A stretch of 64,000 bases of DNA from Candidatus Delongbacteria bacterium (GTDB lineage: Bacteria; CAIWAD01), in the NCBI GenBank assembly GCA_041675285.1, contig JBAYTZ010000009.1, positions 10,601 to 74,600 of the forward strand. Direction: 5' to 3'. Position 1 is the first letter of the stretch. Every line of letters begins with the position of its first letter. The notes under the pieces are model-generated. The model searched no databases. It saw nothing but the letters and a program-made list of their open reading frames with translations, and was not told the origin of the DNA. Shown in pieces: positions 2,311 to 59,384 of this stretch. The position numbers and the translations under genes were made by a program.

Positions 2311-5048
2311 AGACAGCATCCCTGATTCGCCTGAGCCTGTTGTCGCTGGGCCTGGCCGCAAGTCTCGCGCCGGCGCAGGCCGATCCGCGCCTGGCGGCAT
2401 CCCTGGAACAGGCCGGACTGCGCCAGCAGGATCTGGCCTTTCCGCTGCTGCCCGCGGAACGGGACTCCTTCCGGCTGGCCCGGGTGGACGAAATCCTCAA
2501 GTCCGGCCAGCCGCTGGACAGCTGGGGGGATTCGCTGACCCGGCGCCTGGAGCGGACGGAGACACTGGGCCAATTGGTGCGCCGGCTCTGGCCCGAGCTG
2601 CGACGCGCCGGCGCGCCGGCGACGGAACTGCCCGACCTGCGGCCGGGGGCGCTTCGGGGGCGGGATTGGGAGGACTGGACCGACTGGCTGGGCGGCCTGG
2701 GTCGCCGGCGTCTGCTGGAGCCCGCCCAGGTCCAGGTCCTGGAGCAGGATCTGGGCGACCTGCTGCAGGAGGACGGCGAACTGGGCGAACTCAGCGTCTT
2801 CGAGTTGGACAGCCTGCAGCGGCTTTCGGAGGCCGAGTCCCGCGCCCGGCGCCTGCGCCTGGAGGCCGTCCGGCGGCCCGACCCGGCCGAACTGCTGGGC
2901 CTGTTGGACGAGCTGGAGCAGTTCGTGGCCCAACTGGAGGACTTCCGGGCCGCGGCCGACGGCCTGCGCCCCCAGAAGCACCCGCTCTACGGACCCGTGC
3001 TCTACGCAGACGAATTCCTGGCCGTGGGCACGGAGGCGGTCAACCACTGGACGGGCGGCCTGCCGCCCATCGTCATCGACCTGGGGGGCGACGATCTCTA
3101 CGAGGGCCCGGTGGCCCTGAGCCGCGGCGGAGTCAGCCTGCTGCTGGACCTGCAGGGCAACGACCGCTACCGCAGCGGCGGCGAGCTCGGTCCCGCCGCC
3201 AGCGTGGGCGGGCTGGCCCTGTTGCTGGACCTGGCCGGCGACGACCAGTACGAGGGGCGCTACGCGGCGTTGGGCGCCTCCCTGGGCGGGCTGGCCCTCC
3301 TGGTGGACAGAGGGGGCGACGACCTCTACACGGGGGACACCTTCTGCCTGGGGGCCGGCAGCCTGGGAATGGGCCTCTTGCTGGACGAGGCCGGCAACGA
3401 CCTCTACCGCTGCAGCCTCTACGGCCAGGGCTTCGGCCACGTGGCCGGGCTGGGCCTGCTCCAGGACAAGGCCGGCCACGATCAGTACCTGCTGCAGCCG
3501 CGTTACGTGGACCAGATCCGCTACGACGACCACCACTTGAGCATGGGACAGGGCTTCGGCTTCGGCCAGCGGCCGGATCTTTCCGGCGGCGTGGGTCTCC
3601 TGCACGACCTGGCCGGCAACGACCTCTACTCGGCGGACATCTTCGGGCAGGGCGGCGCCTACTGGTGGGCCCTGGGCGCGCTGGTGGACCGCGCGGGCAA
3701 CGACCGCTACCTGGCCTGGCAGTACGCCCAGGGCGCGGGCGTGCACCTGGCGGCGGGCCTCCTGCTGGACGAGGACGGGCAGGACGTCTACCAAAGCCGG
3801 GGCGTCAGCCAGGGCTGCGGGCACGACCTGGCCCTGGGCTGGCTGCTGGAGCGCGGGGGCGACGACAGCTACACGGCCTGGGACTTGAGCCAGGGCGCGG
3901 GCAGCGCCAACGGCACAGGCCGCCTGACGGACCTGCTGGGCGCGGACCTCTACGCCATGCGCGGTCCGGCCAAGCCCCGGGCCTACGGCGATCCCCGCCG
4001 CCGGACGGGCAGCCTGGGCCTCTTCCTCGACGCCACGGGGGCGGACTACTACCTGGGCAACGGAGCCAACGACAGCCTCTGGAGCGGCAGCCTGCGCGGC
4101 CTGGCCCAGGACTGGGGCCCGCGCCGGACTCCCGCCGGAGCCGGGGCCGCGCCCGCGCTGGCGGCGGCCGCCGCCGCGGACGACCCCGGCCCGCTGGATT
4201 CGCTCTTCGTCGAGACGGATTCCGTCGACCGGCTCTACGTCTGGGCCATCCGCCTGGAACCCAAGTGGCTGCGCGAGCGCGACCTGGCCCGGGCGGCCCT
4301 GGTGCGGCGGCCTGTGGAGACCGTGGACCTGCTCCGCCGCCGGCGCCTGCTGTCCAGCGACATCAGCTGGGAGCGCCACGCCCTGAAGGACGTGGTGGTC
4401 GCGCTGGGTGCGGCGGCCGTGCCCCTGCTGGAGGAGGCCGTGGAGGCCCCCCTGCCGGCGGAGCCCGGCGAGGAGCGGACCCGCCGGCTCTCCGAGCAGG
4501 CCTTCGCCCTCTGGGTCTTTTCCGAGGCCTGCCAGTTGGGGGATCCGGCGCGCTTCGCCGACTGGTGGACGCGCGGGCTGGCCCAGTCCACCCCGGGTTC
4601 GCTTTCTCTGCTCCTGGAGGGCCTGGCCGAACGCGACGGGGACCCGCAGATCCTGCTGGAAGGCCTGCGCCACACGCATCCGGGCGTGCGGCGCTCGGCG
4701 GCCTGGGGCCTGGGGCGCAACCCCGCCGGCCCGGCCGGGCGCGCGGCGCTGCTGGCGGCCCTGGCGGACAGCGTGCTAGCGGTGCGGATCAGCGCTTTCG
4801 AGAGCCTGGCTGCGGACACCACCCTGGACGGCGCGCCGCTGGAGGCCCGGCTCTTCGATCCGCTGGCCCCGGCCCTGGAGCGCCGCGAGCTGTTGCGCCT
4901 GCTGGCGCGCCGGGATCCCGCCCGCTGCCGGGCCTGGCTGCCCAGGCTGGAGGCGGATCCCGTCCTGGCTGTCGACGTGCCCTGGCTCAGCGCCGGACTG
5001 CCCCCGGCGCCGCCGCGCGTGGCCGCACGGCGCCGGGGCCGCTCATGA
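2307..5048 (+). CDS. Secreted repeat protein: signal peptide, acidic/helical N-region, 12 degenerate D-x-x-G-x-D-x-Y (RTX/beta-roll-like) repeats, C-terminal HEAT-like repeats
   Basis: Starts MKTASLIRLSLLSLGLAASLAPAQA. Repeats: DLGGDDLY, DLQGNDRY, DLAGDDQY, DRGGDDLY, DEAGNDLY, DKAGHDQY, DLAGNDLY, DRAGNDRY, DEDGQDVY, ERGGDDSY, DLLGADLY, DATGADYY (about nt 3070-4065). C-terminal HPGVRRSAAWGLGR / LAVRISAFESL segments look HEAT-like. ATGA overlap with aroQ. Confidence 0.75.
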   Translation: MKTASLIRLSLLSLGLAASLAPAQADPRLAASLEQAGLRQQDLAFPLLPAERDSFRLARVDEILKSGQPLDSWGDSLTRRLERTETLGQLVRRLWPELRRAGAPATELPDLRPGALRGRDWEDWTDWLGGLGRRRLLEPAQVQVLEQDLGDLLQEDGELGELSVFELDSLQRLSEAESRARRLRLEAVRRPDPAELLGLLDELEQFVAQLEDFRAAADGLRPQKHPLYGPVLYADEFLAVGTEAVNHWTGGLPPIVIDLGGDDLYEGPVALSRGGVSLLLDLQGNDRYRSGGELGPAASVGGLALLLDLAGDDQYEGRYAALGASLGGLALLVDRGGDDLYTGDTFCLGAGSLGMGLLLDEAGNDLYRCSLYGQGFGHVAGLGLLQDKAGHDQYLLQPRYVDQIRYDDHHLSMGQGFGFGQRPDLSGGVGLLHDLAGNDLYSADIFGQGGAYWWALGALVDRAGNDRYLAWQYAQGAGVHLAAGLLLDEDGQDVYQSRGVSQGCGHDLALGWLLERGGDDSYTAWDLSQGAGSANGTGRLTDLLGADLYAMRGPAKPRAYGDPRRRTGSLGLFLDATGADYYLGNGANDSLWSGSLRGLAQDWGPRRTPAGAGAAPALAAAAAADDPGPLDSLFVETDSVDRLYVWAIRLEPKWLRERDLARAALVRRPVETVDLLRRRRLLSSDISWERHALKDVVVALGAAAVPLLEEAVEAPLPAEPGEERTRRLSEQAFALWVFSEACQLGDPARFADWWTRGLAQSTPGSLSLLLEGLAERDGDPQILLEGLRHTHPGVRRSAAWGLGRNPAGPAGRAALLAALADSVLAVRISAFESLAADTTLDGAPLEARLFDPLAPALERRELLRLLARRDPARCRAWLPRLEADPVLAVDVPWLSAGLPPAPPRVAARRRGRS

Positions 5049-13920: not shown

Positions 13921-14028
13921 GGTGCGTCCTTTGTTGTCAGGGATTGGCGCCCCAAGGTACGCAACGAGGGCCGGCCGGCGGAAGGGGCCAGAAGCCGGCC
14001 GCCGGCGCACTGACAACCTTCAAGACAA

Positions 14029-14055
14029 CTCTGTGTCTCTGTGACTCTGTGGTGG
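14029..14055. repeat. Solo arm of the CACAGAG-type octamer array (element A)
   Basis: CTCTGTG-T-CTCTGTG-A-CTCTGTG-GTGG on the + strand, between the phr stop and the proS start. No partner arm within the spacer. Confidence 0.85.
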
Positions 14056-15452: not shown

Positions 15453-15541
15453 GGGGCCTCCTTTCTATTCCAACGTGGCACTTGCTGCGGAGCCCACCGC
15501 CATGCCGCCGCTGTCCAGCGCGCAGGACGAATCGCCGAGTT

Positions 15542-15629
15542 GGTGTCAGGCACCGTGCCTGGCACCGTGCCTGACACGGCAGAGACACCGCGGCGGACAG
15601 CGCTGGTGTCTGGCACGATGCCTGACACC
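15542..15629. repeat. Palindromic GTGCC(T/A)GRCAC cluster (element I) in the phr/GH57 divergent spacer
   Basis: GGTGTCAGGCACCGTGCCTGGCACCGTGCCTGACAC (15542-15577) and GGTGTCTGGCACGATGCCTGACACC (15605-15629). The outer 12-mers are inverted copies (11/12). Confidence 0.8.
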
Positions 15630-15719
15630 AGCCTGCTCAACCTTTGCCCTCAGTCCAGTTGGAATTCCCGTGCCCTCACCCCACCTTCCCTCCGCTTGTC
15701 CAGCTTTGCGGAGATCCTC

Positions 15720-18808: not shown

Positions 18809-19074
18809 CACCACAGAGATGCAGAGGCACAGTTTTTTTGGGGGAGTATTGCCGGAGTGGGGGTGGCTTAGCCTGTCAGACATGGTGCACACGAGGGCTT
18901 GAAGAATCAAAGATGAACTGGACCGCGTGAGGTGAAGGCCAGTGGTCTGACCGCCCAGGCACTAGTTCCAACCGCAGGGCAGAGATTGCAAGAGATAGAA
19001 AGGCAGGCTGTGGGATGATCCACGCTCCAGCTTCACTCCAGCTTTCCGTGTCTCTGTGTCTCCGTGTCTCTGTG
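18809..19074. repeat. Paired inverted octamer-array element B (CACAGAG type)
   Basis: Left arm CACCACAGAGATGCAGAGGCACAG (18809-18832) followed by T7. 213-bp core. Right arm CCGTGTCTCTGTGTCTCCGTGTCTCTGTG (19046-19074). Confidence 0.85.
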
Positions 19075-19097
19075 TTTGTTCCAAGAACGGGAAAGGC

Positions 19098-20003
19098 GTG
19101 AGCCCGCTAACGGGCATCGCGGCCGCGCTGGGCGCGGCCCTCCTCTGGGTGTTGGCCACGCGCCTCTTCCAGGGCGCCGGCAGCCGCCTGCCCGCGCTGG
19201 AACTCAACCTCTGCAAGGGCGCCTGCGCTCTGCTGCTCTTCAGCCTGACCCTGCCCTTCACCCTCCCCGGCACTCCGCGGCCCGACGGCGCGGCCCTGGG
19301 CCTGCTGGTCCTCTCCGGTGTGCTGGGCATCGGACTGGGGGACACGGCCTACTTCCGCGCGCTGGGCGTGCTGGGCACCCGCCGGGTCCTGCTGCTGGAA
19401 CTGCTGGCCGCGCCCACGGCGGCCGGGCTCTCCTGGCTGGCGCTGCAGGAGACGCTGCGCCCCGCGGCCTGGCTGGGCCTGGGGCTGACCCTGGTCGGCG
19501 TGGGCCTGGCGGTCTGGGGGGGATTCCGCCCGGAGGGCGCGCGTCGCCTCCCGCCCGCCGCGCTGCTCTGGGGCCTGCTGGCCGCGCTCTGCCAAGGCGG
19601 CGGCCTGGTGCTGGCCCGCGGGGCCTTCCACGCCACCGGAATGGATCCCGCGCTGGCGGCGGGTCTCCGGCTGGCGGCCGGGGAGGCGGCGCTGCTACTG
19701 GCCTGGTCCTTCAGTTCTACCGGGGCGGGCCGGCGGGCCTGGCAGGCTCTGCGCACGGATCGGCTCTGGCTGCGCGTGGCCGGCGCGGCCCTGCTGGGCA
19801 CCTGGCTGGGCATCTGGCTGCAGCAGGTCTCGCTGGCGCGCCTGCCCGCGGGCGTGGCCCAGACCCTGCTCTCCACGGCCCCGCTCTTCGCCCTGCTGCT
19901 GGCCCGCCTGTCCGGACGCCGGACGGGCGCCCTGGCCTGGGCGGGGGCAGCCCTGGCCCTGGCGGGCATCTTTCTGCTCAGCTCGGGCCTCGGCCGGGCC
20001 TGA
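19098..20003 (+). CDS. EamA/DMT-family transporter
   Basis: 10-TM-like profile, two EamA halves (LTGIAAALGAALLWVLATRLF...; ...LLSTAPLFALLLARL). Start set at GTG 19098 because the first 14 codons of ORF 19056 are translated repeat arm (MSPCLCVCSK...). Confidence 0.8.
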   Translation: MSPLTGIAAALGAALLWVLATRLFQGAGSRLPALELNLCKGACALLLFSLTLPFTLPGTPRPDGAALGLLVLSGVLGIGLGDTAYFRALGVLGTRRVLLLELLAAPTAAGLSWLALQETLRPAAWLGLGLTLVGVGLAVWGGFRPEGARRLPPAALLWGLLAALCQGGGLVLARGAFHATGMDPALAAGLRLAAGEAALLLAWSFSSTGAGRRAWQALRTDRLWLRVAGAALLGTWLGIWLQQVSLARLPAGVAQTLLSTAPLFALLLARLSGRRTGALAWAGAALALAGIFLLSSGLGRA

Positions 20004-20030
20004 TCCTGGTTGAAGGTCTCCTGGGTATCA

Positions 20031-20201
20031 CACCACAGGGACACAGAGGCACAGAGAGCTGATGCAGATCAACTCAGGAAGAACATGGTGGGGGTGAGGG
20101 GGCCGAAACCAGTGAGACCTACAACCAGGCTGGCCAATCGACCACTGTCCAATCAGAAGACCACCGCTTGTTTGTTTTCTCTGTGTCTCCGTGGCTCTGT
20201 G
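20031..20201. repeat. Paired inverted octamer-array element C (CACAGAG type)
   Basis: Left arm CACCACAGGGACACAGAGGCACAGAGAG (20031-20058). 120-bp core. Right arm CTCTGTGTCTCCGTGGCTCTGTG (20179-20201). Confidence 0.85.
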
Positions 20202-20272
20202 TTCGTTCCAAGATTGAGCAGGGCCTGAGCCCACTGCCGGGCAACCCGGCGCGCCGCGTGCTACCTTGGGCC

Positions 20273-20896
20273 ATGCGAGGACCACTTCCCACTTTCAACT
20301 TGATTCTCGGTCTACTGCTGAGCGCCTGGACGCTGGGTTGCGGCGGCCGACCCGCCCCCGGACCGGCCAGCCGGCGGGAGGCCGATTTGGTGCGGCCGGT
20401 GGGCCACGCGCTGGCCCAGGCCTTGCAGCACGGGCTGCGGGCCGAGCTGCTGGGCGCGCTGGAAGCCGGCGGACCGGCGGGCGCCGTGCGCGTCTGCAGC
20501 GTCCGGGCCCAGCAGCTGGCGCAGGAGCTGGGCGCGGCGGCCTCGCCTCCAGCCGAGCTGCGCCGGGTGAGCCGCCGGGCGCGCAACCCCCTGGACGCCC
20601 CAGACGAGTGGGATCTCCAGGCGCTGGAGCTGTTCGAGGGCGCGGAGCGCGACTCGGGCCACCTGCCGGAGGACTGGGTGCTGCGTCTGGAGCGGGCGGG
20701 CGAACTGCGCTACCGCTACTACACGCCCATCGTGACGGGCGCGCCCTGCCTGGCCTGTCACGGGGAGACTTTGTCGGACACGGTGCGCGCGGTGCTGGCC
20801 ACGCTCTACCCCCAAGATCCGGCCACGGGCTATCGCGAAGGCGAGCTGCGCGGCCTCGTGCGGGTGGAACTGGACGCCGCCGCTTTTTCCAACTAG
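20273..20896 (+). CDS. DUF3365 (Tll0287-like) lipoprotein with c-type heme motif
   Basis: Lipobox LLSAWTLGCGG. CxxCH motif in APCLACHGE. Conserved tail YREGELRGLVRVEL. Start set at ATG 20273. Confidence 0.75.
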   Translation: MRGPLPTFNLILGLLLSAWTLGCGGRPAPGPASRREADLVRPVGHALAQALQHGLRAELLGALEAGGPAGAVRVCSVRAQQLAQELGAAASPPAELRRVSRRARNPLDAPDEWDLQALELFEGAERDSGHLPEDWVLRLERAGELRYRYYTPIVTGAPCLACHGETLSDTVRAVLATLYPQDPATGYREGELRGLVRVELDAAAFSN

Positions 20897-20905
20897 AGGA
20901 CGAGC

Positions 20906-21517
20906 ATGAATTTTCCCCCGCCCTTCTACCGCTGGCGGCCTCATCCCTGGCACGGTCTGGACGTCGGACCCGAGCCGCCGCGCCGCCTCAATGCCTACAT
21001 CGAAATCACGCCCTTCGACCTGGTCAAATACGAAGTGGACAAGGCCACGGGCTACCTGCGCGTGGACCGGCCCCAGCGCACCAGTTCCCAGCCGCCGGCG
21101 CTATATGGCTTCGTGCCGCGCACCTACTGCGGCCGCCGGGTGGGCGCGCTCTCGCCCACGGCCAGCCGCGGGGACGGCGACCCGTTGGACATCTGCGTGA
21201 TCAGCGAGCGGCCCGTCAACCGCAGCGAAGTCATCCTGACGGCCAAGGTGCTGGGCGGGATCCAGATGGTGGACGGGGGCGAGGCCGATGACAAGATCAT
21301 CGCCGTGCTGGCCAACGACAACATCTGGGGCGGGGCGGAAAGCCTGGACGACGTGCCCCACGTGCTGATCGAGCGTCTGCGCCACTATTTCTCCACCTAC
21401 AAGTTGATCCCGGGCAAGGAGTCCGACATCGAGGCGGAAGTGATCTACGACGTGGAGCACGCGCTGCGGGTGGTGGAGGCCTCCATGGCCGACTACGCCG
21501 AGGAGTTCGGTGGCTGA
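20906..21517 (+). CDS. ppa: Inorganic pyrophosphatase (family I)
   Basis: [16 protein letters not shown]...[11 protein letters not shown]...[14 protein letters not shown]. Confidence 0.92.
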
Positions 21518-22241
21518 GGAACCCTTCCGCGATCCCCTGGCCGAGCTGCTGGGGGAGGCGGGTCTGGGCCGCTGCCTGGACCTGGCCTCCGGCCGGGGCG
21601 CCTTCAGCGGCCGGCTGGCCGCGCTGGCACCGGCCACCTGCTGGATCCTGCTGGACACGGACTTGGCGCAGCTGCGCGAGGCTCGGGCCGGGCTGGGTCC
21701 GCAGCTGGGCGCACCCCTGCTGCCGCTCCAGTCCCGGGCCGAGCGCGTGCCGCTGGCCGCGGGCAGCCTGGACACGGTGGCCCTCTCCTTTTCCCTGCAC
21801 CATCTGGGGCGGCCGGGTCGCGTGCTGCGCGAGGCCTGCCGCCTGCTGAAGCCCGGCGGGCGGCTGATCCTGGCCGAACCGCTGGCGGACGGCCTGCGCC
21901 CGCTGCAGACCATCCACCGCGACCTGCACCACCTCTCGGCCCGGCTGGACCGCCGGCTGGGGCGCTGCCACCGGCCCACCTATCCGCTGCGCGCGCTACG
22001 CCGGCTTTTGGACGGGCTGCCGCTGGCCTGGCGCTCGACCTGCTGGCGGCCGGCGGATCTGCCGCCCACGGAAACGGCCCAGCTGGCTCCCGTGCTGGAC
22101 ACGCTGAGCCGCCTGGACGCCGAACTGCGGCGCCGCCACCTGCCCGGTCTGCGACGCCGGCTGGCGGAGATCCGGGTCCGCGTGGAGCGCGAGGGCTACG
22201 GTTGCCAGACCCAATACCTGGCCGTGGGAGTGCGCCGATGA
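21510..22241 (+). CDS. Class I SAM-dependent methyltransferase
   Basis: Motif [14 protein letters not shown]. Post-I/II region [15 protein letters not shown] start overlapping the ppa stop. Confidence 0.75.
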
Positions 22242-23407
22242 CGACCGCCTGGGAGGGCCCGGCCGAGCTGCGTCAGCAGTTCCTGCTGGACCCGGAGATC
22301 GCCTTCCTCAACCACGGCTCCTTCGGGGCCTGCCCGCGACCTGTGCTGGCCCGCCAGGGCGAACTGCGCACCCGGTTGGAGCAGGAGCCTGTCCGCTTCT
22401 TGTATCACCACCTGCCGGAGTGGCTGGCGGAGGCCCGGGCCGCCCTGGCCAGCGCCTTGGATTGCGCGGGTTCCGAGCTGGCCTACCAGGTCAACGTCAC
22501 GGCGGCCCTGAACCTGGTGATCCGCTGTCTGCCCCTGCAGGCCGGTGACGAGATCCTGCTGGGCGACCACGAGTACGGCGCGCTGCTGCGCGCCTGGCAG
22601 GCCGAGGCCGGGCGGCGCGGGCTGCGGATTCGCGTGGTGGAGCTGCCCTGGCCGCGGCCCACGGCGGAGGCCCTGGTCCAGGCCTTTGAAGTCGCCGCCG
22701 GCCCCGCCACGCGGGTCCTGTTCTTCAGCCACATCTCCTCGCCCACGGCCCTGCGCCTGCCGGCGGAGGAACTGGTGGCCCTGGCCCGCCGGCGCGGCTG
22801 GCTCAGCCTGGTGGACGGCGCCCACGCGCCGGGCCAGCTGCCGCTTTCCATCCGCGCCCTGGACGCCGACGTCTACGCGGGCAACTGCCACAAGTGGCTG
22901 CTGGCCCCCAAGGGTTGCGGCTTCCTGCAGGTGCCGGCGCGCCACCAGGCTTGGGTGGAGCCGCTGGTCACGAGCTGGGGCAACCAGAACCGCCCGGAGG
23001 CCGAGCGGCGCGGCGCCTTCCTGGATGAGCTGGAGTGGGCGGGTACCACGGATCCCTGCGCCTGGCTGGCCCTGCCCGCGGCGCTGGAATTCCGCCGCCG
23101 CTGGGACTGGGACGAGCGCGCCGCCCTGGGCCGGGAACGGCTCCAGGAGTGGGGTGACCGGCTCTGCGCGCGGCTGGGCCTGGAGCGCGTCACCGAGCGC
23201 GACCCGAGCCTGCAGATGCTGGCCCTGGGTCTGCCGCCGCTGGATGCTGTCGCCCTGCACGGCGCTCTGTTCGAGCGCTTCGGCGTGGAAGTGCCGGCCC
23301 ACGAGTTCCGTGGCCGGCCGCTGCTGCGCGTCTCGCTGCAGCCCTATAACCGCGAGGCGGACCTGCTGCGCTTGGAGCAGGCGCTGGCAGCCCTGCTGCC
23401 GCGCTGA
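22238..23407 (+). CDS. Class V PLP-dependent aminotransferase (isopenicillin-N epimerase / cysteine desulfurase-like)
   Basis: AFLNHGSFGACPRPV...; PLP-lysine region AGNCHKWLLAPKGCGFL. ATGA overlap with the upstream gene. Confidence 0.85.
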   Translation: MTTAWEGPAELRQQFLLDPEIAFLNHGSFGACPRPVLARQGELRTRLEQEPVRFLYHHLPEWLAEARAALASALDCAGSELAYQVNVTAALNLVIRCLPLQAGDEILLGDHEYGALLRAWQAEAGRRGLRIRVVELPWPRPTAEALVQAFEVAAGPATRVLFFSHISSPTALRLPAEELVALARRRGWLSLVDGAHAPGQLPLSIRALDADVYAGNCHKWLLAPKGCGFLQVPARHQAWVEPLVTSWGNQNRPEAERRGAFLDELEWAGTTDPCAWLALPAALEFRRRWDWDERAALGRERLQEWGDRLCARLGLERVTERDPSLQMLALGLPPLDAVALHGALFERFGVEVPAHEFRGRPLLRVSLQPYNREADLLRLEQALAALLPR

Positions 23408-23464
23408 GCGCCACGGCGCACGCACAAGGGGGACCGGAGTGGAACACAGCCAAGGAGGTCGGAG

Positions 23465-24826
23465 ATGGGACGCGCACACGGGACGCTCGCACTGTTGGCC
23501 CTGCTGGTCATGAAGGCCGGCGCGCTGGAACCCGTCGCGGACGAGCGCCGGCCGGATCCGCGCTGGGGGCGCCAGGTGATCTACGAAGTCAACCTGCGGC
23601 AGTTCTCGGCGGAGGGGACCCTGGACGCCTTCCGCGGGCACCTGCCCCGGCTGCGCGAGCTGGGCGTGGACATCCTCTGGCTGATGCCCATTTTCCCCGT
23701 GGGCCTGGAGAACCGCAAGGGCGGCCTGGGCAGCCCCTACTCGGTGCGCGACTACCGCGCCGTCAACCCCGAGCTGGGCAGCCTGGAGGATCTGCGCGAG
23801 CTGACGCGGGAAGCCCACGCCCTGGGCATGAGCGTGATCCTCGACTGGGTGGCCAACCACTGCGCCTGGGACAATCCGCTGGTGACCCAGCAGCCCGAGT
23901 GGCTGACCCGCGGGGCGGACGGCCGCCCCCAGCCGCCTGTGGCCGACTGGAGCGACGTGGTGGACCTGGACTACAGCCAGCGCGGGCTGCGCGACTACCA
24001 GATCCAGTCCATGGCCTACTGGCTGCGGATGGCGGACGTGGACGGTTTCCGCTGCGACGTAGCGGGCATGGTGCCGACGGATTTCTGGCAGGAGGTCCGG
24101 CCGGCCCTGGAAGCGGTCAAGCCCGTCTTCCTGCTGGCCGAGTGGGAGGACCCGCTCCTGGCCGGTCCCTTCGACATGAGCTATTCCTGGGACCTGCACC
24201 GCGCCGGCAACGCCTACATGCAGGACAAACTGGGCGTGGACCAGCTGGACTCCCTGCTGCGCGCCGAGGAGGGCCGCTGGCCGGCCGGGCACATCCGCAT
24301 GCGTTTCACCACCAACCACGACGAGAACAGCTGGAACGGCACTGAGGACGAGCGGCTGGGGCCGGCGGCGGACGCCTTCGGCGTGCTGGCCGCCACGCTG
24401 CCGGGCATGCCCCTGCTCTACAACGGGCAGGAGGCCGGGCTGGCCCACCGCCTGAGCTTCTTCGAGAAGGACGAGATCGTCTGGCAGGCCCATCCGCGTC
24501 AGGCGCTCTACGCCAGTCTGAACCGACTCAAGCACCTGAGTCCGGCCCTCTGGGAGACGGACGTGAACGCGGCCAGCTACCGGCGTCTGCCCACGGGCTC
24601 CGCGCCCGGGTCGGAAAAGGTCTGGGCCTTCCTGCGCGGCTCCAGCCAGGAAGACCTGCTCTGCGTGGTCAACCTGGGCGGGGAGCCGATCACCGTGGAG
24701 TTGGCGGATCCCGCGCTCAGCGGCGCCTGGCGCGTCTGGGAGGATGGCGCGCTGGAACACGCTGCCGGCACGCTGCAACTGGAGCTGCCCGCCTGGGGCT
24801 GGCGCCTGCTGCGTCATCCCCGGTGA
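23465..24826 (+). CDS. Secreted GH13 alpha-amylase family enzyme
   Basis: Conserved regions: DILWLMPIF, VILDWVANH, GFRCDVAGMVP, LLAEWED, FTTNHDEN. N-terminal signal peptide. Confidence 0.9.
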   Translation: MGRAHGTLALLALLVMKAGALEPVADERRPDPRWGRQVIYEVNLRQFSAEGTLDAFRGHLPRLRELGVDILWLMPIFPVGLENRKGGLGSPYSVRDYRAVNPELGSLEDLRELTREAHALGMSVILDWVANHCAWDNPLVTQQPEWLTRGADGRPQPPVADWSDVVDLDYSQRGLRDYQIQSMAYWLRMADVDGFRCDVAGMVPTDFWQEVRPALEAVKPVFLLAEWEDPLLAGPFDMSYSWDLHRAGNAYMQDKLGVDQLDSLLRAEEGRWPAGHIRMRFTTNHDENSWNGTEDERLGPAADAFGVLAATLPGMPLLYNGQEAGLAHRLSFFEKDEIVWQAHPRQALYASLNRLKHLSPALWETDVNAASYRRLPTGSAPGSEKVWAFLRGSSQEDLLCVVNLGGEPITVELADPALSGAWRVWEDGALEHAAGTLQLELPAWGWRLLRHPR

Positions 24827-25752
24827 GGCCGACCCCGATCTCCGGATCCACGCCCGCGACCCGCGCCCTGGCCCTGCTGGTGGCGGCCAACCTGCTCTGG
24901 TCCAGCGGCGGCTGGCTGATCAAGGAGATCGACCTGGCGGGTCCGGCGCTGGCCGGTTGGCGCTCGCTGCTCGCCGCCGGCTTTCTGCTGGTCTTCCGCG
25001 CTTGGTTCCGCTCCCGAACCGGCGCGAGCGCGCCCGTGGACTGGCGGCGGCCCGGCCTCTGGCTGGGGGCGGCCAGTTTCGCCCTCAACACGCTGCTCTT
25101 CATCAGCGCCACCAAGCTCACCAGCGCGGCCAACGCCATCCTGCTCCAGTACACGGCCCCCGTCTACGTGCTGCTCTTCGGCGCGCTCTGGCTGGGTGAA
25201 CCCATCCGCCGGCGCGACGTGCTGGCCGTGGGCGGCGCCTTTCTGGGCCTGGCCCTGCTGCTCTCCGAGCGCCAAGGACCCAGCTCGGGCCTGGGCAACC
25301 TGCTGGCCCTGGGGGCGGGCCTGACCTTCGCCGGGACCATCCTGGCGCTGCGCCGGGAGGCCGGTCACGATCCGCTCTTGGTCCCGCTGCTCGGCAACGG
25401 GCTGGCCGCCCTGCTGCTGGCCCCGCTCTGGCTGGGCGCGGCGGTCCCGGCGGGCCAGTGGCCCCTGCTGCTGACGCTGGCCGTGGGCCAGTTCGGACTG
25501 GCCTATGCCTGTTACGCCCTGGGCCTGCGCCACGTCAGCGCCGCCACGGGCGTGCTGACGGCGGCCATCGAGCCCGTGCTCAACCCGCTCTGGGTGGCCC
25601 TGCTGCTCCACGAGATCCCTGGCCCCCGCGCCCTGGCCGGCGGCGCGCTGGTGCTGGCCGCCGTCACCGCCCGCGGCTACTGGGCTTCGCGGGGGGGAAG
25701 GGGTGGTTTTACCACAGAGACACAGAGACACAGAGATGTAAATGGATGTTGA
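24823..25752 (+). CDS. EamA/DMT-family transporter (3' end runs into repeat element D)
   Basis: Two EamA halves (LLVAANLLWSSGGWLIKE...; ...AIEPVLNPLWVALLLHE). The last ~14 codons (FTTETQRHRDVNGC*) are encoded by the left arm of element D. GTG start. Confidence 0.8.
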   Translation: MRPTPISGSTPATRALALLVAANLLWSSGGWLIKEIDLAGPALAGWRSLLAAGFLLVFRAWFRSRTGASAPVDWRRPGLWLGAASFALNTLLFISATKLTSAANAILLQYTAPVYVLLFGALWLGEPIRRRDVLAVGGAFLGLALLLSERQGPSSGLGNLLALGAGLTFAGTILALRREAGHDPLLVPLLGNGLAALLLAPLWLGAAVPAGQWPLLLTLAVGQFGLAYACYALGLRHVSAATGVLTAAIEPVLNPLWVALLLHEIPGPRALAGGALVLAAVTARGYWASRGGRGGFTTETQRHRDVNGC

Positions 25753-25930
25753 GTTGTCTAGAGTCTATCGCATGGTTGTGTTATAATTAAAACAAGTTAC
25801 GAATAAAACCATTTATTTGGATAATAAGCTACTTAAGAATCGAATCTCAACTTTTAATCTGTCACAATTTACAAACAAGCTTCTAGAACCTATCTATAAA
25901 CTCTACTCTGTGTCTCTGTGCCTCTGTGGT
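25711..25930. repeat. Paired inverted octamer-array element D (CACAGAG type) with AT-rich core
   Basis: Left arm ACCACAGAGACACAGAGACACAGAG (25711-25735). Right arm CTCTGTGTCTCTGTGCCTCTGTGGT (25906-25930), which is its reverse complement at 24/25. The 170-bp core (25736-25905) has 50 G+C by hand count (about 29%). Confidence 0.9.
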
Positions 25931-25939
25931 AGATTTCTC

Positions 25940-26878
25940 TCAATCCCCGCGCAGCAGGTCGGGCAATTCGCGCGTGGCCGCGGCCAGACCCGGAGACTCC
26001 GTCCGGGGCTCGGCGCGTTCGAGCGCGGGGGCCGGGGCGGGGTGCGGCACAGGCTCAAGGGCCTGGAAGTGCGGACCAGACAGCCACTGCGTGTCGAAGC
26101 CTTCCTCCGCCAGTTCCAAATTGAGCTGGCGCAGGCGCTCGGTGCCGCGCTCGCAGTGGCCGGGATCCAGCTCGCCGATCCAGTACTGCCGGCCCTCGCG
26201 CACCGCGGCCTCCGCCGTGGACAGGCTGCCGCCGTAGGGATCCAGCACGATCTCCCCGCGCTTGGAGGAGGCCTGGATCATCCGCTGCAGGATGGGCAGC
26301 GGCTTGGACGTGCCGTGCTGGTAGCGCTGGTTGGCCACTTTGGAGAAGAAACTGATGCTGCCCTGCTTGCCCTCGAAGAAGACGTTGGAGGGCCGCTTGT
26401 CCGAGAGCAGCGGGCGCGTGCGGCCTTTGCTGGCGTAGATCACCAGCTCGTGCTGGGGCGCGTAGTTGCCCTGCAGGTCCCCCGAGCCGTGGTTGTTCTT
26501 CACCCAGATCAGGCAGTTCTTGTACTTCAGGCGCTGGGCGGCCTGACGCGGGCTCAAGTCCCGCGAGCGCTCCTGGATGGCTTCGAAAATCGCCGGAAAG
26601 CTCAGGTGGTCGCACCAGCAGTAGAAGTGGCAGCCCGGCTTGAGCACGCGCTCCGATTCCCGGATGAAGCGCGCCAGATCAAAGGTCGAGGCCGAGATGG
26701 CCGTCACCTTCTCGTGGGCCACGGGCCGGTTGGACTGGTAGTCCTTGTAGGGCGGGTCCGTCAGCAGCAGGTCCACGCTGTTGTCGGGTAGCAGCGCGAA
26801 CAGGTCGGCGCAGTCCCCCTGGAAGACCGTGTTGGGGCGCGGAGGCGCCGGCGGGACGGGGGAGGGGCGTACGCTCAT
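25940..26878 (-). CDS. Beta-class N6-adenine/N4-cytosine DNA methyltransferase (N6_N4_Mtase family), no adjacent restriction gene
   Basis: Catalytic motif IV LLLTDPPY precedes the SAM motif I-like VLDPYGGSLSTAEAA (beta-class order). Confidence 0.85.
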   Translation of the reverse strand: MSVRPSPVPPAPPRPNTVFQGDCADLFALLPDNSVDLLLTDPPYKDYQSNRPVAHEKVTAISASTFDLARFIRESERVLKPGCHFYCWCDHLSFPAIFEAIQERSRDLSPRQAAQRLKYKNCLIWVKNNHGSGDLQGNYAPQHELVIYASKGRTRPLLSDKRPSNVFFEGKQGSISFFSKVANQRYQHGTSKPLPILQRMIQASSKRGEIVLDPYGGSLSTAEAAVREGRQYWIGELDPGHCERGTERLRQLNLELAEEGFDTQWLSGPHFQALEPVPHPAPAPALERAEPRTESPGLAAATRELPDLLRGD

Positions 26879-36747: not shown

Positions 36748-36930
36748 GGGCCGCGCTCGGTGGAGGGATCGTGGATCCGGGGCCTGCCGGGAGGCGGGCA
36801 CGGCATCCCGGTCTGCCGCATGGGGCCGGTCGAGTGAAGGTGACGGGTACCGCGCGATGACAGATCGCCGAACCCCGTCAGGACCGGAAGGTAGCAGCGG
36901 CAGGTGATCCTGGCTTGTGCCGCGGCCATC
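36748..36930 (+). ncRNA. ffs: Signal recognition particle RNA (boundaries approximate)
   Basis: GTCAGGACCGGAAGGTAGCAGC at 36877-36898 matches the conserved helix-8 core of bacterial SRP RNA (E. coli GUCAGGUCCGGAAGGAAGCAGC) including the GGAA tetraloop. 5' GGCCGCG (36749-55) can pair with 3' CGCGGCC (36921-27). It has the classical position directly upstream of dnaX. A TGcTATATT extended -10-like box lies at 36739-36747. Confidence 0.75.
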
Positions 36931-37019
36931 CGTCATCTTCACTCGGCCGGTCCAATGGGGATGATGGACATCCTCTTCGCCTGCCCTTCCATTCCGCAGC
37001 CGAATTCCCTGGAGTCTGC

Positions 37020-58164: not shown

Positions 58165-58304
58165 GGACACGAAGCACGGGAAGAGATCGAAGAGCACGAA
58201 GGGGAGAACAGGTGGGAGTCATGCGCAGGGCGCTCGAGTTGCCACCCGCGTTCCAAAGCCAATTCAGGCTTCGTGTTCTTCCGAGCTTCGTGGACTTCGT
58301 GTCC
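58165..58304. repeat. Paired inverted octamer-array element H (CACGAAG type)
   Basis: Left arm GGACACGAAGCACGGGAAGAGATCGAAGAGCACGAAGG (58165-58202). 65-bp core. Right arm GCTTCGTGTTCTTCCGAGCTTCGTGGACTTCGTGTCC (58268-58304). The terminal 10-mers GGACACGAAG/CTTCGTGTCC are perfect inverted copies. Confidence 0.85.
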
Positions 58305-58333: not shown

Positions 58334-58735
58334 ATGAAGATCGATCGCGTGGACCACATCGGGATCGCGGTGCCCAGCCTGGACGCCGCCCAGCCCTTCT
58401 GGGAGGATAGTCTGGGCCTGGTCTTCCACGGCCGCGAATACGTGGCCGACCAGCAGGTGACCGTGGCCATGGGCGCCGCGGGGGAGACGCACATCGAACT
58501 GCTGGAGCCCGCCGACCCGGCCAGTCCCATCGCGCGCTTCCTGGAGAAGAACCGCCCGGGCATCCACCACATCGCCCTGCACGTGGACAATCTGGAGGAG
58601 GCGCTGGCCCGCCTCACGGCCCAGGGCGCCACTTTGATTGATCAAGTGCCGCGGCTGGGCGCCGGCGGCAAACGCATCGCCTTTGTCCATCCGAAAAGCA
58701 CGTCGGGCGTGCTGCTCGAACTCTGCGAAGGCTGA
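58334..58735 (+). CDS. mce: Methylmalonyl-CoA epimerase (VOC/glyoxalase family)
   Basis: MKIDRVDHIGIAVPSLDAA...IELLEP...SPIARFLEKNRPGIHHIALHVDNLE...KIAFVHPKSTSGVLLELCE. Confidence 0.85.
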   Translation: MKIDRVDHIGIAVPSLDAAQPFWEDSLGLVFHGREYVADQQVTVAMGAAGETHIELLEPADPASPIARFLEKNRPGIHHIALHVDNLEEALARLTAQGATLIDQVPRLGAGGKRIAFVHPKSTSGVLLELCEG

Positions 58736-59001
58736 GCTGGCACGCTGTACCTCCTTCCCTCGCAGTGCGCGCGGGAAGGAAGGCGGATTTGCCTCGCACA
58801 TGCCAAAGGATGCCCCGCTCAAGCTGTGGGATGACAAACAGGACGTGTGAGGTGAAGCCCGCAGGGCTGAACCAGAAAATGGGTGAAGCGCAAAGCGCGA
58901 ACCAATCACCAGCGGATCAGGAAGAGCTTGCTTCGGCCGTCTGTCTGACGGCGGCCGTGAGGCCGCCTAGTTACGGCCGCTGAAAAAGCGCCTCTTTGGC
59001 T

Positions 59002-59030
59002 CCACCTTTCTGGCGCCAGCAGAAAGGTGG
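59002..59030. repeat. 29-nt hairpin motif, copy 1 (flanks the 11-mer array)
   Basis: CCACCTTTCTG-GCGCCAG-CAGAAAGGTGG: 11-bp perfect stem. Confidence 0.8.
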
Positions 59031-59062
59031 AAGACATGGGTCCCAGCCATGCCGGGATCGAG

Positions 59063-59139
59063 CGGTGCCAGGCCGGTGCCAGGTCAGTGCCAGGCCGGTG
59101 CCAGGTCAGTGCCAGGCCGGTGCCAGGCCGGTGCCAGAG
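59063..59139. repeat. Tandem array, 7 x 11 bp, unit C(G/A)GTGCCAGG(C/T)
   Basis: Units: cggtgccaggc, cggtgccaggt, cagtgccaggc, cggtgccaggt, cagtgccaggc, cggtgccaggc, cggtgccagag. All are contiguous. Confidence 0.95.
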
Positions 59140-59145
59140 CACTGT

Positions 59146-59172
59146 CCATTTCTGGCGACAGCAGAAGGGTGG
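59146..59172. repeat. Hairpin motif, degenerate copy 2 (other flank of the 11-mer array)
   Basis: CCATTTCTGGCGACAGCAGAAGGGTGG, a direct, diverged copy of 59002-59030. Confidence 0.7.
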
Positions 59173-59207
59173 AAATCAAGGCGCCCGGCAAGTACCAGGG
59201 ACGAGCC

Positions 59208-59278
59208 ATGGGATCCCAGCTTTCGCTGGGATGACAGTCACGATGCCGTGGGATCCCCCGGTCAAGCCGGGGGATGAC
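59208..59278. repeat. Two adjacent REP-like hairpins sharing GGGAT...GATGAC flanks
   Basis: Hairpin 1: cATGGG-ATCCCAGC-TTTC-GCTGGGAT-GAC (59208-59235). Hairpin 2: cGTGGG-ATCCCCCGG-TCAAG-CCGGGGGAT-GAC (59248-59278). Confidence 0.75.
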
Positions 59279-59308
59279 GAACGGACACATGCTCCACGTC
59301 CATGGAAT

Positions 59309-59332
59309 CTCTGTGCCTCCGTGTCTCTGTGG
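59309..59332. repeat. Solo arm of the CACAGAG-type octamer array (element E)
   Basis: CTCTGTGCCTCCGTGTCTCTGTGG, 53 nt upstream of the uvrC ATG. No CACAGAG partner arm in the 570 bp upstream. Confidence 0.8.
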
Positions 59333-59384
59333 TTAGAACGCTCAGGCGCTACCTTGGCCTCGTCCAAGCAGCAACCGGAGCCTG

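Follow-up and report, generated by a model that had tools for sequence, protein, structure and literature searches.

The window analysed here (the whole 64-kb stretch of DNA, part of a bacterial chromosome with a GC content of ∼71% and found on a metagenome contig; ENA ERZ27247358) carries three intergenic elements, B, C and D, in which inverted arrays of an 8-nt CACAGAG-type unit flank a core, and two solo arms, A and E. These are very probably members, lacking an open reading frame (ORF), of a widespread palindromic family that is associated with the gene for the GxxExxY protein. Neither the distribution of this family across phyla nor its link to a protein family had been part of the original prediction made for this DNA.

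All 18 exact CACAGAG heptamers of the window lie within eight arrays of about three 8-nt units, so that none falls in coding sequence, and the two-unit pattern CACAGAGNCACAGAG has 14 matches with at most one mismatch, compared with 0.03 expected. Eight arrays are also resolved by a position-by-position score of the window; six form elements B, C and D and two are the solo arms (array intervals 14029–14051 and 59309–59331). Three arrays read CACAGAG (the left arms of B, C and D) and five read CTCTGTG (the three right arms and both solo arms).

In element B a degenerate left arm (CACCACAGAGATGCAGAGGCACAG; 18809–18832, + strand; 17/21 against the unit consensus) and a right arm of ∼3.5 units of NCTCYGTG (19046–19074, − strand) enclose a 213-nt core (18833–19045) with neither an ORF nor a GxxExxY remnant, and complementarity between the arms is partial because of the degenerate left arm. 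The arms of element C (20031–20056, + strand, and 20179–20201, − strand) are complementary at 19/23 positions, with mismatches only at unit positions 4 and 8. Its core (20057–20178) measures 122 nt and not 120 as originally given, while the core sizes of B and D and the arm match of D stand as described. In D the three perfect units of the left arm (25711–25735, + strand) pair at 24/25 positions with the right arm (25906–25930, − strand) across an AT-rich core of 170 nt (25736–25905). Solo arm A (14029–14055) consists of units CACAGAGT CACAGAGA CACAGAG on the − strand and a terminal CCAC, and solo arm E (59309–59334, − strand) of three units.

A BLASTN comparison of the cores of B, C and D, the elements of the related locus L128 and the neighbourhoods of the solo arms detected no similarity apart from the arms and a flank shared by B and C. 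The coordinates, the excess of pattern matches and this comparison establish that the described architecture of inverted 8-nt-unit arrays around unrelated cores is real. A search of a phage collection for a foreign source of the AT-rich core of D gave no match. All array sites of the window are intergenic and lie at gene boundaries, as had been noted for B, C and D; the two solo arms and a duplicated flank after C had been overlooked. The window sequence is 100% identical in two independent assemblies and the arrays are therefore not an assembly artefact; no population polymorphism was seen between the window and these two other assemblies of the contig.

Distribution of the arms and their link to the GxxExxY gene

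A search for the exact pattern CACRGAGNCACRGAGNCACRGAG, with one genome per species, found at least 120 genome stretches with the arms; they represent over a dozen phyla and one archaeal bin, and several are from cultured isolates. The phyla include Acidobacteriota, Planctomycetota, Gemmatimonadota, Pseudomonadota (all classes, alpha to zeta), Verrucomicrobiota, Spirochaetota, Bacillota, Nitrospirota, Chloroflexota, Cyanobacteriota and Bacteroidota. Among the listed stretches, neighbouring arrays within 1 kb are arranged +/− in 77 cases, −/+ in nine and ++ in two, and 65% of the arrays lie outside ORF calls, compared with 14% expected (p = 6 × 10−66; the calls are crude and cover 86% of the DNA). 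The motif is thus not equally common in coding sequence and inverted pairing is not peculiar to the window, two of the points on which the original prediction had held that it could fail. Core lengths in the listed elements range from 6 to 686 nt, and the cores are mostly AT-richer than their own genomes and mutually unrelated. The inverted repeat often continues for a few variable bases past the arrays (tcac/gtga, taac/gtta or ctca/tgag). In Gemmatimonadota, short hairpins with an identical 10-nt loop (ATGAAGTCGT) are found at several loci in different genomes, a recurrence indicating that ORF-less hairpins propagate as such. The pattern is also present in at least 120 predicted viral contigs (IMG/VR; L215–L334), where pairing is as in cells (66 +/−); only one GxxExxY gene was found in the listed contigs by a pattern-based search, and these contigs may be true phages or proviral regions with host flanks. 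At one locus, L014, the core was considered as a captured host-gene fragment; what was taken as its ‘right arm’ matches only weakly and lies within a tRNA-synthetase-like ORF that continues through it, and the case was not used as evidence.

At four loci selected by their arms (L033, L069, L116 and L118) the core of ∼400–500 nt is an ORF of 120–130 codons that encodes a GxxExxY protein. Three of the four match the NCBIfam family TIGR04256 ‘GxxExxY protein’ (E = 1 × 10−42 to 5 × 10−45); the fourth is 46% identical to other copies and matches the family profile with E = 2 × 10−36, and a representative from the homologue search (P0109) matches PF13366. Wherever a core in this arm-first sample contains an identifiable protein-coding ORF the product is GxxExxY, and no convincing ORF was detected in the other cores of 245–690 nt (L014, L032, L042 and others); the gene is nevertheless present in only 4/77 inverted pairs. 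A gene-first sample was obtained by searching metagenomes with an alignment of the GxxExxY domain alone, since queries containing arms would bias the sample, and gave 79 loci with usable flanks. Inverted arrays lie within 250 nt of the gene at 68/79 loci (62 of canonical and six of reversed polarity), seven have an array on one side and four were scored as ‘none’; three of these four are bracketed by inverted arrays built from other units. For random placements in the window, the proportion with inverted arrays is 0.2%. The GxxExxY gene is therefore almost always found inside arms while few arm pairs contain the gene, which is the same asymmetry as that between REP-associated tyrosine transposases (RAYTs) and repetitive extragenic palindromic (REP) sequences or between insertion sequences (ISs) and MITEs (miniature inverted-repeat transposable elements). 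A RAYT-like mobilizing gene had been suggested as something to look for, and the GxxExxY nuclease gene is the candidate in ORF-bearing members. A chance origin of the arrays is excluded by the excess of two-unit matches, the confinement of the heptamers to arrays, the avoidance of ORFs and the random placements.

The homologue search returned at least 8000 GxxExxY sequences, indicating a very large family. Most of the best 120 homologues start with ‘MNHRDTEAQR…’, which is the left arm translated, and some end with ‘…SVSLCLCG’, which is the right arm; the peptide variants NRRDAETQR … SASLRLRG correspond to CGCAGAG-type units in both arms. Complete cassettes from Thiobacillus denitrificans and two metagenome contigs have the order ATG-AACCACAGAGNCACAGAGNCACAGAGA, ORF, stop codon, ∼10 nt and CTCTGTGNCTCTGTGNCTCTGTGGTT, and are wedged between adjoining host genes. 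GxxExxY genes are co-oriented with both neighbours in 23/32 cases, so that the cassettes are probably transcribed by read-through. The gene is rare on plasmids (eight records) and absent from the phage collection, and Rfam scans placed 0/40 GxxExxY loci in ribosomal RNA (rRNA) and found no rRNA in the window. Cultured carriers include Gemmatirosa kalamazoonensis, T. denitrificans, Magnetospirillum sulfuroxidans, Pelomonas caseinilytica and Bernardetia sp.

Several features of the cassette boundaries were observed in addition. Right arms (L137, L154, L157, L165, L166, L136 and others) commonly end in …GTGGTGAA, with a host ATG 3–20 nt further on; the GGTGA in this end matches the 3′ part of an extended Shine–Dalgarno sequence, and the element may thus supply a ribosome-binding site to the displaced gene. 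On the left side, the upstream host ORF often stops at the TGA within ATGAACC. In L159, L178 and L199, which are related metagenome contigs, a reversed-polarity cassette occupies the same site between methylmalonyl-CoA-mutase-like subunit genes, and L137, L140, L144, L154, L157 and L167 have a common downstream host gene, yet their arms are either CAC-type or CGC-type. These shared-site cassettes look like orthologous insertions in which both arms changed together.

GxxExxY (TIGR04256/PF13366; ∼120–130 codons) is a predicted minimal RecB/Cas4/λ-exonuclease-like PD-(D/E)XK nuclease. The residues that are invariant in the domain alignment are Asp62, Glu72-x-Lys74 and Gln86-x-x-x-Tyr90; we take the aspartate and the E-x-K motif to be the catalytic residues of the PD-(D/E)XK fold and QxxxY to be the motif of the RecB/Cas4/λ-exonuclease group. 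Pfam gave additional faint matches to Cas4 and restriction folds and the defence-system libraries a faint similarity to Cas4 only, and no solved structure was detectable by sequence search. The best PDB neighbours of an AlphaFold2 model (pLDDT 89) are λ exonuclease, LHK-Exo, Cas4 SSO0001 and the AdnAB nuclease; I-Bth0305I, a homing endonuclease domain of the PD-(D/E)XK type, was also found as a weak structural match. Identity between copies from different phyla is ∼70%, which implies horizontal spread. PF13366 has been described as a family of unknown function with multiple transfers (Steczkiewicz et al., 2012; PMC3424549).

Behaviour of the arms and history of the locus

The unit consensus is C-R-C-N-G-A-G-N, sometimes extended to 9 nt, with 2–5 units per arm and variants such as CACGGAG, CGCAGAG, CGCCGAG, CACCGAG, CACGAAG and CGGTGAG across the family. 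The two arms of one element share the unit variant (CAC or CGC; A, G or C at position 4). In 22 strictly 8-periodic elements, inter-arm complementarity at unit positions 2, 4 and 8 is 90, 73 and 82%, compared with 48, 28 and 33% expected from composition. Arm mismatches read on the ORF sense strand are G·U in 65 cases and A·C in 67, and there is thus no RNA-wobble signature. The arms of different elements are in different reading frames or lie upstream of the start codon in the 5′ untranslated region, and the arm-encoded residues 1–9 are disordered in the AlphaFold2 model, which indicates that the nucleotides rather than the peptide are conserved. Most simply, it is the nucleotides and their duplex-forming potential that are conserved, at the level of DNA, and not a peptide or a purely RNA structure. 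The predicted stems of 23–29 bp form in every fold, and the folding energies of B and C relative to shuffled sequences are unremarkable (z = −0.95 and −0.29, respectively). No terminator-like call or U-tract was found at the elements, the flanks of which have no T runs, and a promoter-like match is present inside the core of D.

Element B lies between the stop codon of a GH57/CBM53 gene (18791) and the GTG start codon of a gene for an EamA transporter (19098), and C between the EamA stop codon (20003) and the ATG of a Tll0287-like gene (20273, conserved in relatives); the genes are co-directional at both sites. Element D separates two convergent genes, for a second EamA protein (EamA2) and an N6/N4 DNA methylase (25940–26878, − strand), and its right arm ends 10 nt from the methylase stop codon.

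Relatives with shared synteny were found through the EamA and ProRS proteins, and comparison with them identifies the elements as insertions. L129 has an empty B site of 39 nt, the site spans 3 nt in a third relative, for which gene coordinates only were used, and in L128 it is occupied by a tandem pair of elements with other cores. At the C site, L128 has no element and the third relative has 38 nt. At the D site, L129 has the second EamA gene followed by a plain GC hairpin. The closest relative, L212 (GCA_020726405.1, DYSB01000164.1; 96% identity in ProRS), has an orthologous B in the same orientation, with a core that is 74% identical compared with 85% for the adjacent coding sequence and with one right-arm unit missing; solo arm A is also orthologous there and has two units compared with three in the window. 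The elements thus persist for a long time, with cores that drift freely, arms that keep their complementarity and units that are gained or lost.

They are also involved in rearrangements. The 49 nt that follow the right arm of C (20202–20250, + strand) are a diverged copy (76%; 37/49 nt) of the 49 nt of host flank that follow the right arm of B (19075–19123, + strand), which include the first EamA codons, and the right arms and these flank copies together constitute a direct repeat of ∼70–80 nt that brackets EamA. In L128 the flank sequence is found only at the 5′ end of EamA, which indicates that the right arm was copied along with adjacent host DNA. L212 lacks EamA and the rest of C exactly between the direct repeats, such that B is followed by the copied flank and then by the Tll0287-like gene. 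Since more distant relatives keep EamA, the loss in L212 is a deletion between the arm-plus-flank repeats.

L212 also differs in other respects. Only ∼300 nt of the photolyase 3′ end are left (L212 3700–5060), and an Unstab_antitox-type antitoxin gene, followed by another ORF, lies between this remnant and GH57. In the third relative the corresponding position also holds an Unstab_antitox gene, and the photolyase gene is retained.

Proposed mechanism, rival explanations and known systems

The mobilizing mechanism that we infer has the arms acting as DNA. As a duplex array or as an extruded hairpin or cruciform, they would be recognized by the GxxExxY nuclease, and breaks made by this enzyme, followed by recombinational or template-switch repair, would place arms with or without the gene at new intergenic sites. 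The same break repair could homogenize the two arms of an element and capture unrelated filler DNA as its core, which would account for the lack of similarity among cores, for the AT-richness of the D core and for the flank transduced at C. ORF-less copies would rely on a nuclease encoded elsewhere, as REPINs rely on RAYTs and MITEs on IS transposases. A transcribed stem of 23–29 bp would probably also serve as a substrate of RNase III, as a side effect and not as a selected function. Among the roles put forward in the original prediction, that of a non-autonomous mobile element fits best, given the empty sites in relatives and the candidate mobilizing gene in ORF-bearing members. The whole reading, with spread driven by the nuclease and ORF-less copies dependent on a gene elsewhere, is judged to have an even chance of being correct. 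Its broadest form is more tentative and falls somewhat short of this: that the arrays and GxxExxY constitute an unrecognized pan-bacterial class of mobile element, REP/RAYT-like in its logic and driven by a PD-(D/E)XK enzyme, which spreads across phyla, into phages and into operon junctions and leaves behind ORF-less palindromes with filler cores.

Several observations weigh against nuclease-driven spread. A profile of 120 proteins and tblastn detected no GxxExxY in the six-frame translation of the window, which makes B, C and D ORF-less members, and no GxxExxY gene was found at the loci of the relatives. The fold matches of the protein are weak (best E = 5 × 10−3, TM ∼0.46–0.5), and that it cuts, binds or moves the arms is a prediction only. 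None of B, C, D and the cassettes L123–L125 shows a direct repeat at its ends, where the flanks often extend the palindrome, and the empty sites of the relatives are too diverged to place insertion junctions. The unrelated cores of B, C and D are unlike the outcome of simple copy-and-paste of a master ORF-less element, and the stable inheritance of B and solo arm A suggests that this lineage may have no activity or only an ancient one. The counts from genomes and viral contigs are lower bounds.

The elements could instead be immobile relics, that is former GxxExxY cassettes from which the gene was deleted or replaced and in which the arms have not yet decayed, with no current dependence on an enzyme. 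Vertical inheritance of B and solo arm A, the degenerate left arm of B, the unique cores and a window devoid of the gene are all consistent with this. However, no gene remnant is detectable in the cores (a decayed GxxExxY gene in B, C or D is ruled out by the tblastn and six-frame profile searches), the near-perfect arms of D surround an AT-rich core that cannot be a decayed local gene, the gene is present in so few of the listed inverted pairs, ATGAAGTCGT-loop hairpins recur across Gemmatimonadota loci and genomes, and two tandem elements occupy the B site of L128; relics are thus considered unlikely, although they deserve some weight. Homing would reverse the relationship: ORF-less palindromes would pre-exist and a homing-endonuclease-like GxxExxY gene would cut their centre and copy itself in, making the hairpins targets and not products. 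The position of the gene at the palindrome centre in 86% of cases, the abundance of short-loop ‘empty’ hairpins, the presence of I-Bth0305I among the structural neighbours and the protein similarity across phyla all point in this direction. Nevertheless, homing would need a second mechanism for the cross-phylum spread of the hairpins, reversed-polarity arms are found at 6/79 genes and no hairpin was found filled in one genome and empty at the orthologous site of another, and it is regarded as distinctly unlikely.

A host-selected RNA stem, serving as an RNase III processing site, operon insulator or 3′-end stabilizer in the manner of the stems of rRNA intervening sequences (IVSs), is at least as unlikely as homing. 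It would be in keeping with the positions of B and C between co-directional genes and of D between convergent genes, with the stems predicted in every fold and with the probable read-through of 23/32 cassettes, and a precedent is offered by IVSs in which RNase III cuts a stem that encloses an ORF (PMC4990558). It leaves the occurrence of the same 8-nt unit in a dozen phyla unexplained, however, and G·U is not in excess over A·C, B and C fold no better than shuffled sequence, relatives manage without an element at the corresponding sites and 0/40 GxxExxY loci fall in rRNA genes. A role as an intrinsic terminator is not supported, since no element has a U-tract or terminator-like call. The remaining alternative, iterons or invertible promoter segments under a host regulator or invertase, is highly improbable. 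Inverted tandem short units do resemble iteron or operator arrays, the 120–213-nt cores are inverton-like in size and the core of D has its promoter-like match, but in D, between convergent genes, a promoter would have no target, the orientation of B is the same in the window and L212, and loops of 6–10 nt are too short for a promoter. The occurrence of the same units across over a dozen phyla as well as in viral contigs, bracketing one gene family, is unlike a lineage-specific regulator and speaks against the protein-binding iterons of the original prediction.

Comparison with known systems shows that the family fails a defining feature of each of REP/RAYT, MITE/IS and IVS. As in REP/REPIN–RAYT systems, inverted copies of the family's own repeat stand on either side of one small gene of nuclease type, ORF-less intergenic copies are far more numerous, inverted doublets are common and persistence is long-term and largely vertical. 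However, RAYTs are Y1 HUH transposases and not PF13366/TIGR04256 PD-(D/E)XK proteins, and a REP unit is an imperfect palindrome of 20–40 nt, often with a GTAG/CGTC tag, whereas the arm described here is a direct tandem array of 8-nt units that is not palindromic and has no consistent end of this type. REPs are also species-specific, in contrast to an arm sequence that is the same across phyla, and here the gene is multi-copy and horizontally mobile and the cores are long and unrelated. Terminal inverted repeats of ∼25 nt, a size of 60–270 bp, intergenic location, presence or absence between relatives and the existence of an ORF-bearing version with the same ends are all MITE-like or IS-like. 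MITE copies share a core, though, while these cores share nothing, the arms are tandem units of variable number, no target-site duplication was seen and neither a DDE nor another known transposase is involved.

The IVSs of 23S rRNA in Coxiella burnetii and Leptospira are likewise selfish inserts of a few hundred nucleotides with ends that pair into a long stem, often with a small ORF inside, although an ORF-less state is known too; they are horizontally acquired and then inherited (PMC4990558). Membership of this group is ruled out by the absence of the present elements from rRNA, both in the window and at 0/40 GxxExxY loci. The ORF of an IVS also encodes an S23p four-helix bundle, and IVS stems have no shared repeat unit; excision by RNase III has been shown for IVSs, whereas here the stems are long enough in principle. 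Eukaryotic foldback transposons have inverted arms of tandem short subrepeats in variable number around a heterogeneous, unrelated central ‘loop’, but their arms are hundreds of base pairs long and their enzymology is different or unknown, and the analogy is architectural only.

When the window and 18 + 40 related loci were scanned against Rfam, at gathering thresholds and by E-value, no family fell on the arrays, and searches of the openly searchable literature (which does not extend to curators' notes) with the arm sequences, arm peptides, GxxExxY/PF13366 and repeat descriptors found no description. This is in line with the earlier statement that the repeats belong to no named family, and they apparently represent an undescribed kind of selfish or mobile DNA. 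In the part of the literature that can be searched, GxxExxY is named rarely and in passing, and this uncharacterized and very large protein family is now given a genomic context. A gene inside a palindrome that crosses phyla, together with the same palindrome without the gene in intergenic DNA, suggests a new nuclease-based selfish element. The cultured carriers make experiments possible. There are also consequences for genome evolution, since the elements mediate deletions, as in the loss of EamA in L212, and at operon junctions they may alter expression. Annotation is affected as well: the arms lack stop codons in essentially every frame (a single variant unit introduces one, in one frame), so that gene callers extend ORFs through them, giving arm-derived N-termini (‘MNHRDTEAQR’) and tails (‘SVSLCLCG’) and also changing host genes such as EamA2.

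Neighbouring genes and other features of the window

The EamA2 ORF (24823–25752) runs through the left arm of D and ends inside the AT-rich core, and its terminal ∼14 codons (…FTTETQRHRDVN) are derived from the element. The homologue in L129 ends ∼10 codons earlier, and displacement of the original stop codon seems to have taken place. The closest matches of the window ProRS are unclassified ‘MAG: bacterium’ entries, and its identity to entries under the labels Calditrichaeota or Cloacimonadota is 78%. The photolyase stop codon (14076) and the start of proS (13920) flank solo arm A, and solo arm E closes a noncoding stretch of ∼570 nt, 50 nt upstream of the start of uvrC.

This stretch (58736–59308) contains a tandem repeat of ∼11 nt (GTGCCAGGCCG/GTGCCAGGTCA, ∼59070–59135), two copies of CTGGCGNCAGCAGAARGGTGGAA (∼59010 and ∼59150) and two GGGATCCC-based hairpins; the stretch could be what is left of a large core that has lost its left arm. 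Further upstream, a degenerate CTTCGTG array with irregular spacing and no partner arm (58265–58300) precedes a glyoxalase/epimerase-like gene (58334–58735); the reverse complement, CACGAAG, is a unit variant known from GxxExxY arms elsewhere.

The octamer TACCTTGG occurs three times in the window (0.33 expected), at 13952–13959 (− strand), 20262–20269 (+ strand) and 59350–59357 (+ strand), in each case 4–35 nt upstream of a start codon (those of proS, the Tll0287-like gene and uvrC, respectively). L128 conserves the copy that precedes the Tll0287-like gene and L212 has a near match to it (GTTACCTTGAGCCATG), and the octamer may be a promoter or leader element of this lineage.

In the photolyase/GH57 intergenic region, the Rfam E-value scan gave weak microRNA-precursor and small-RNA matches on both strands (15530–15643), which suggests a long hairpin that is unrelated to the CACAGAG family. 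The repeat finder also reported coding repeats with a period of ∼78–81 nt (GGxxLLxDxxGNDxY-like) at 3057–3962, which are unrelated to the arrays, and a gene for small bacterial signal recognition particle RNA is located at 36841–36938 (Rfam RF00169, 68.8 bits).

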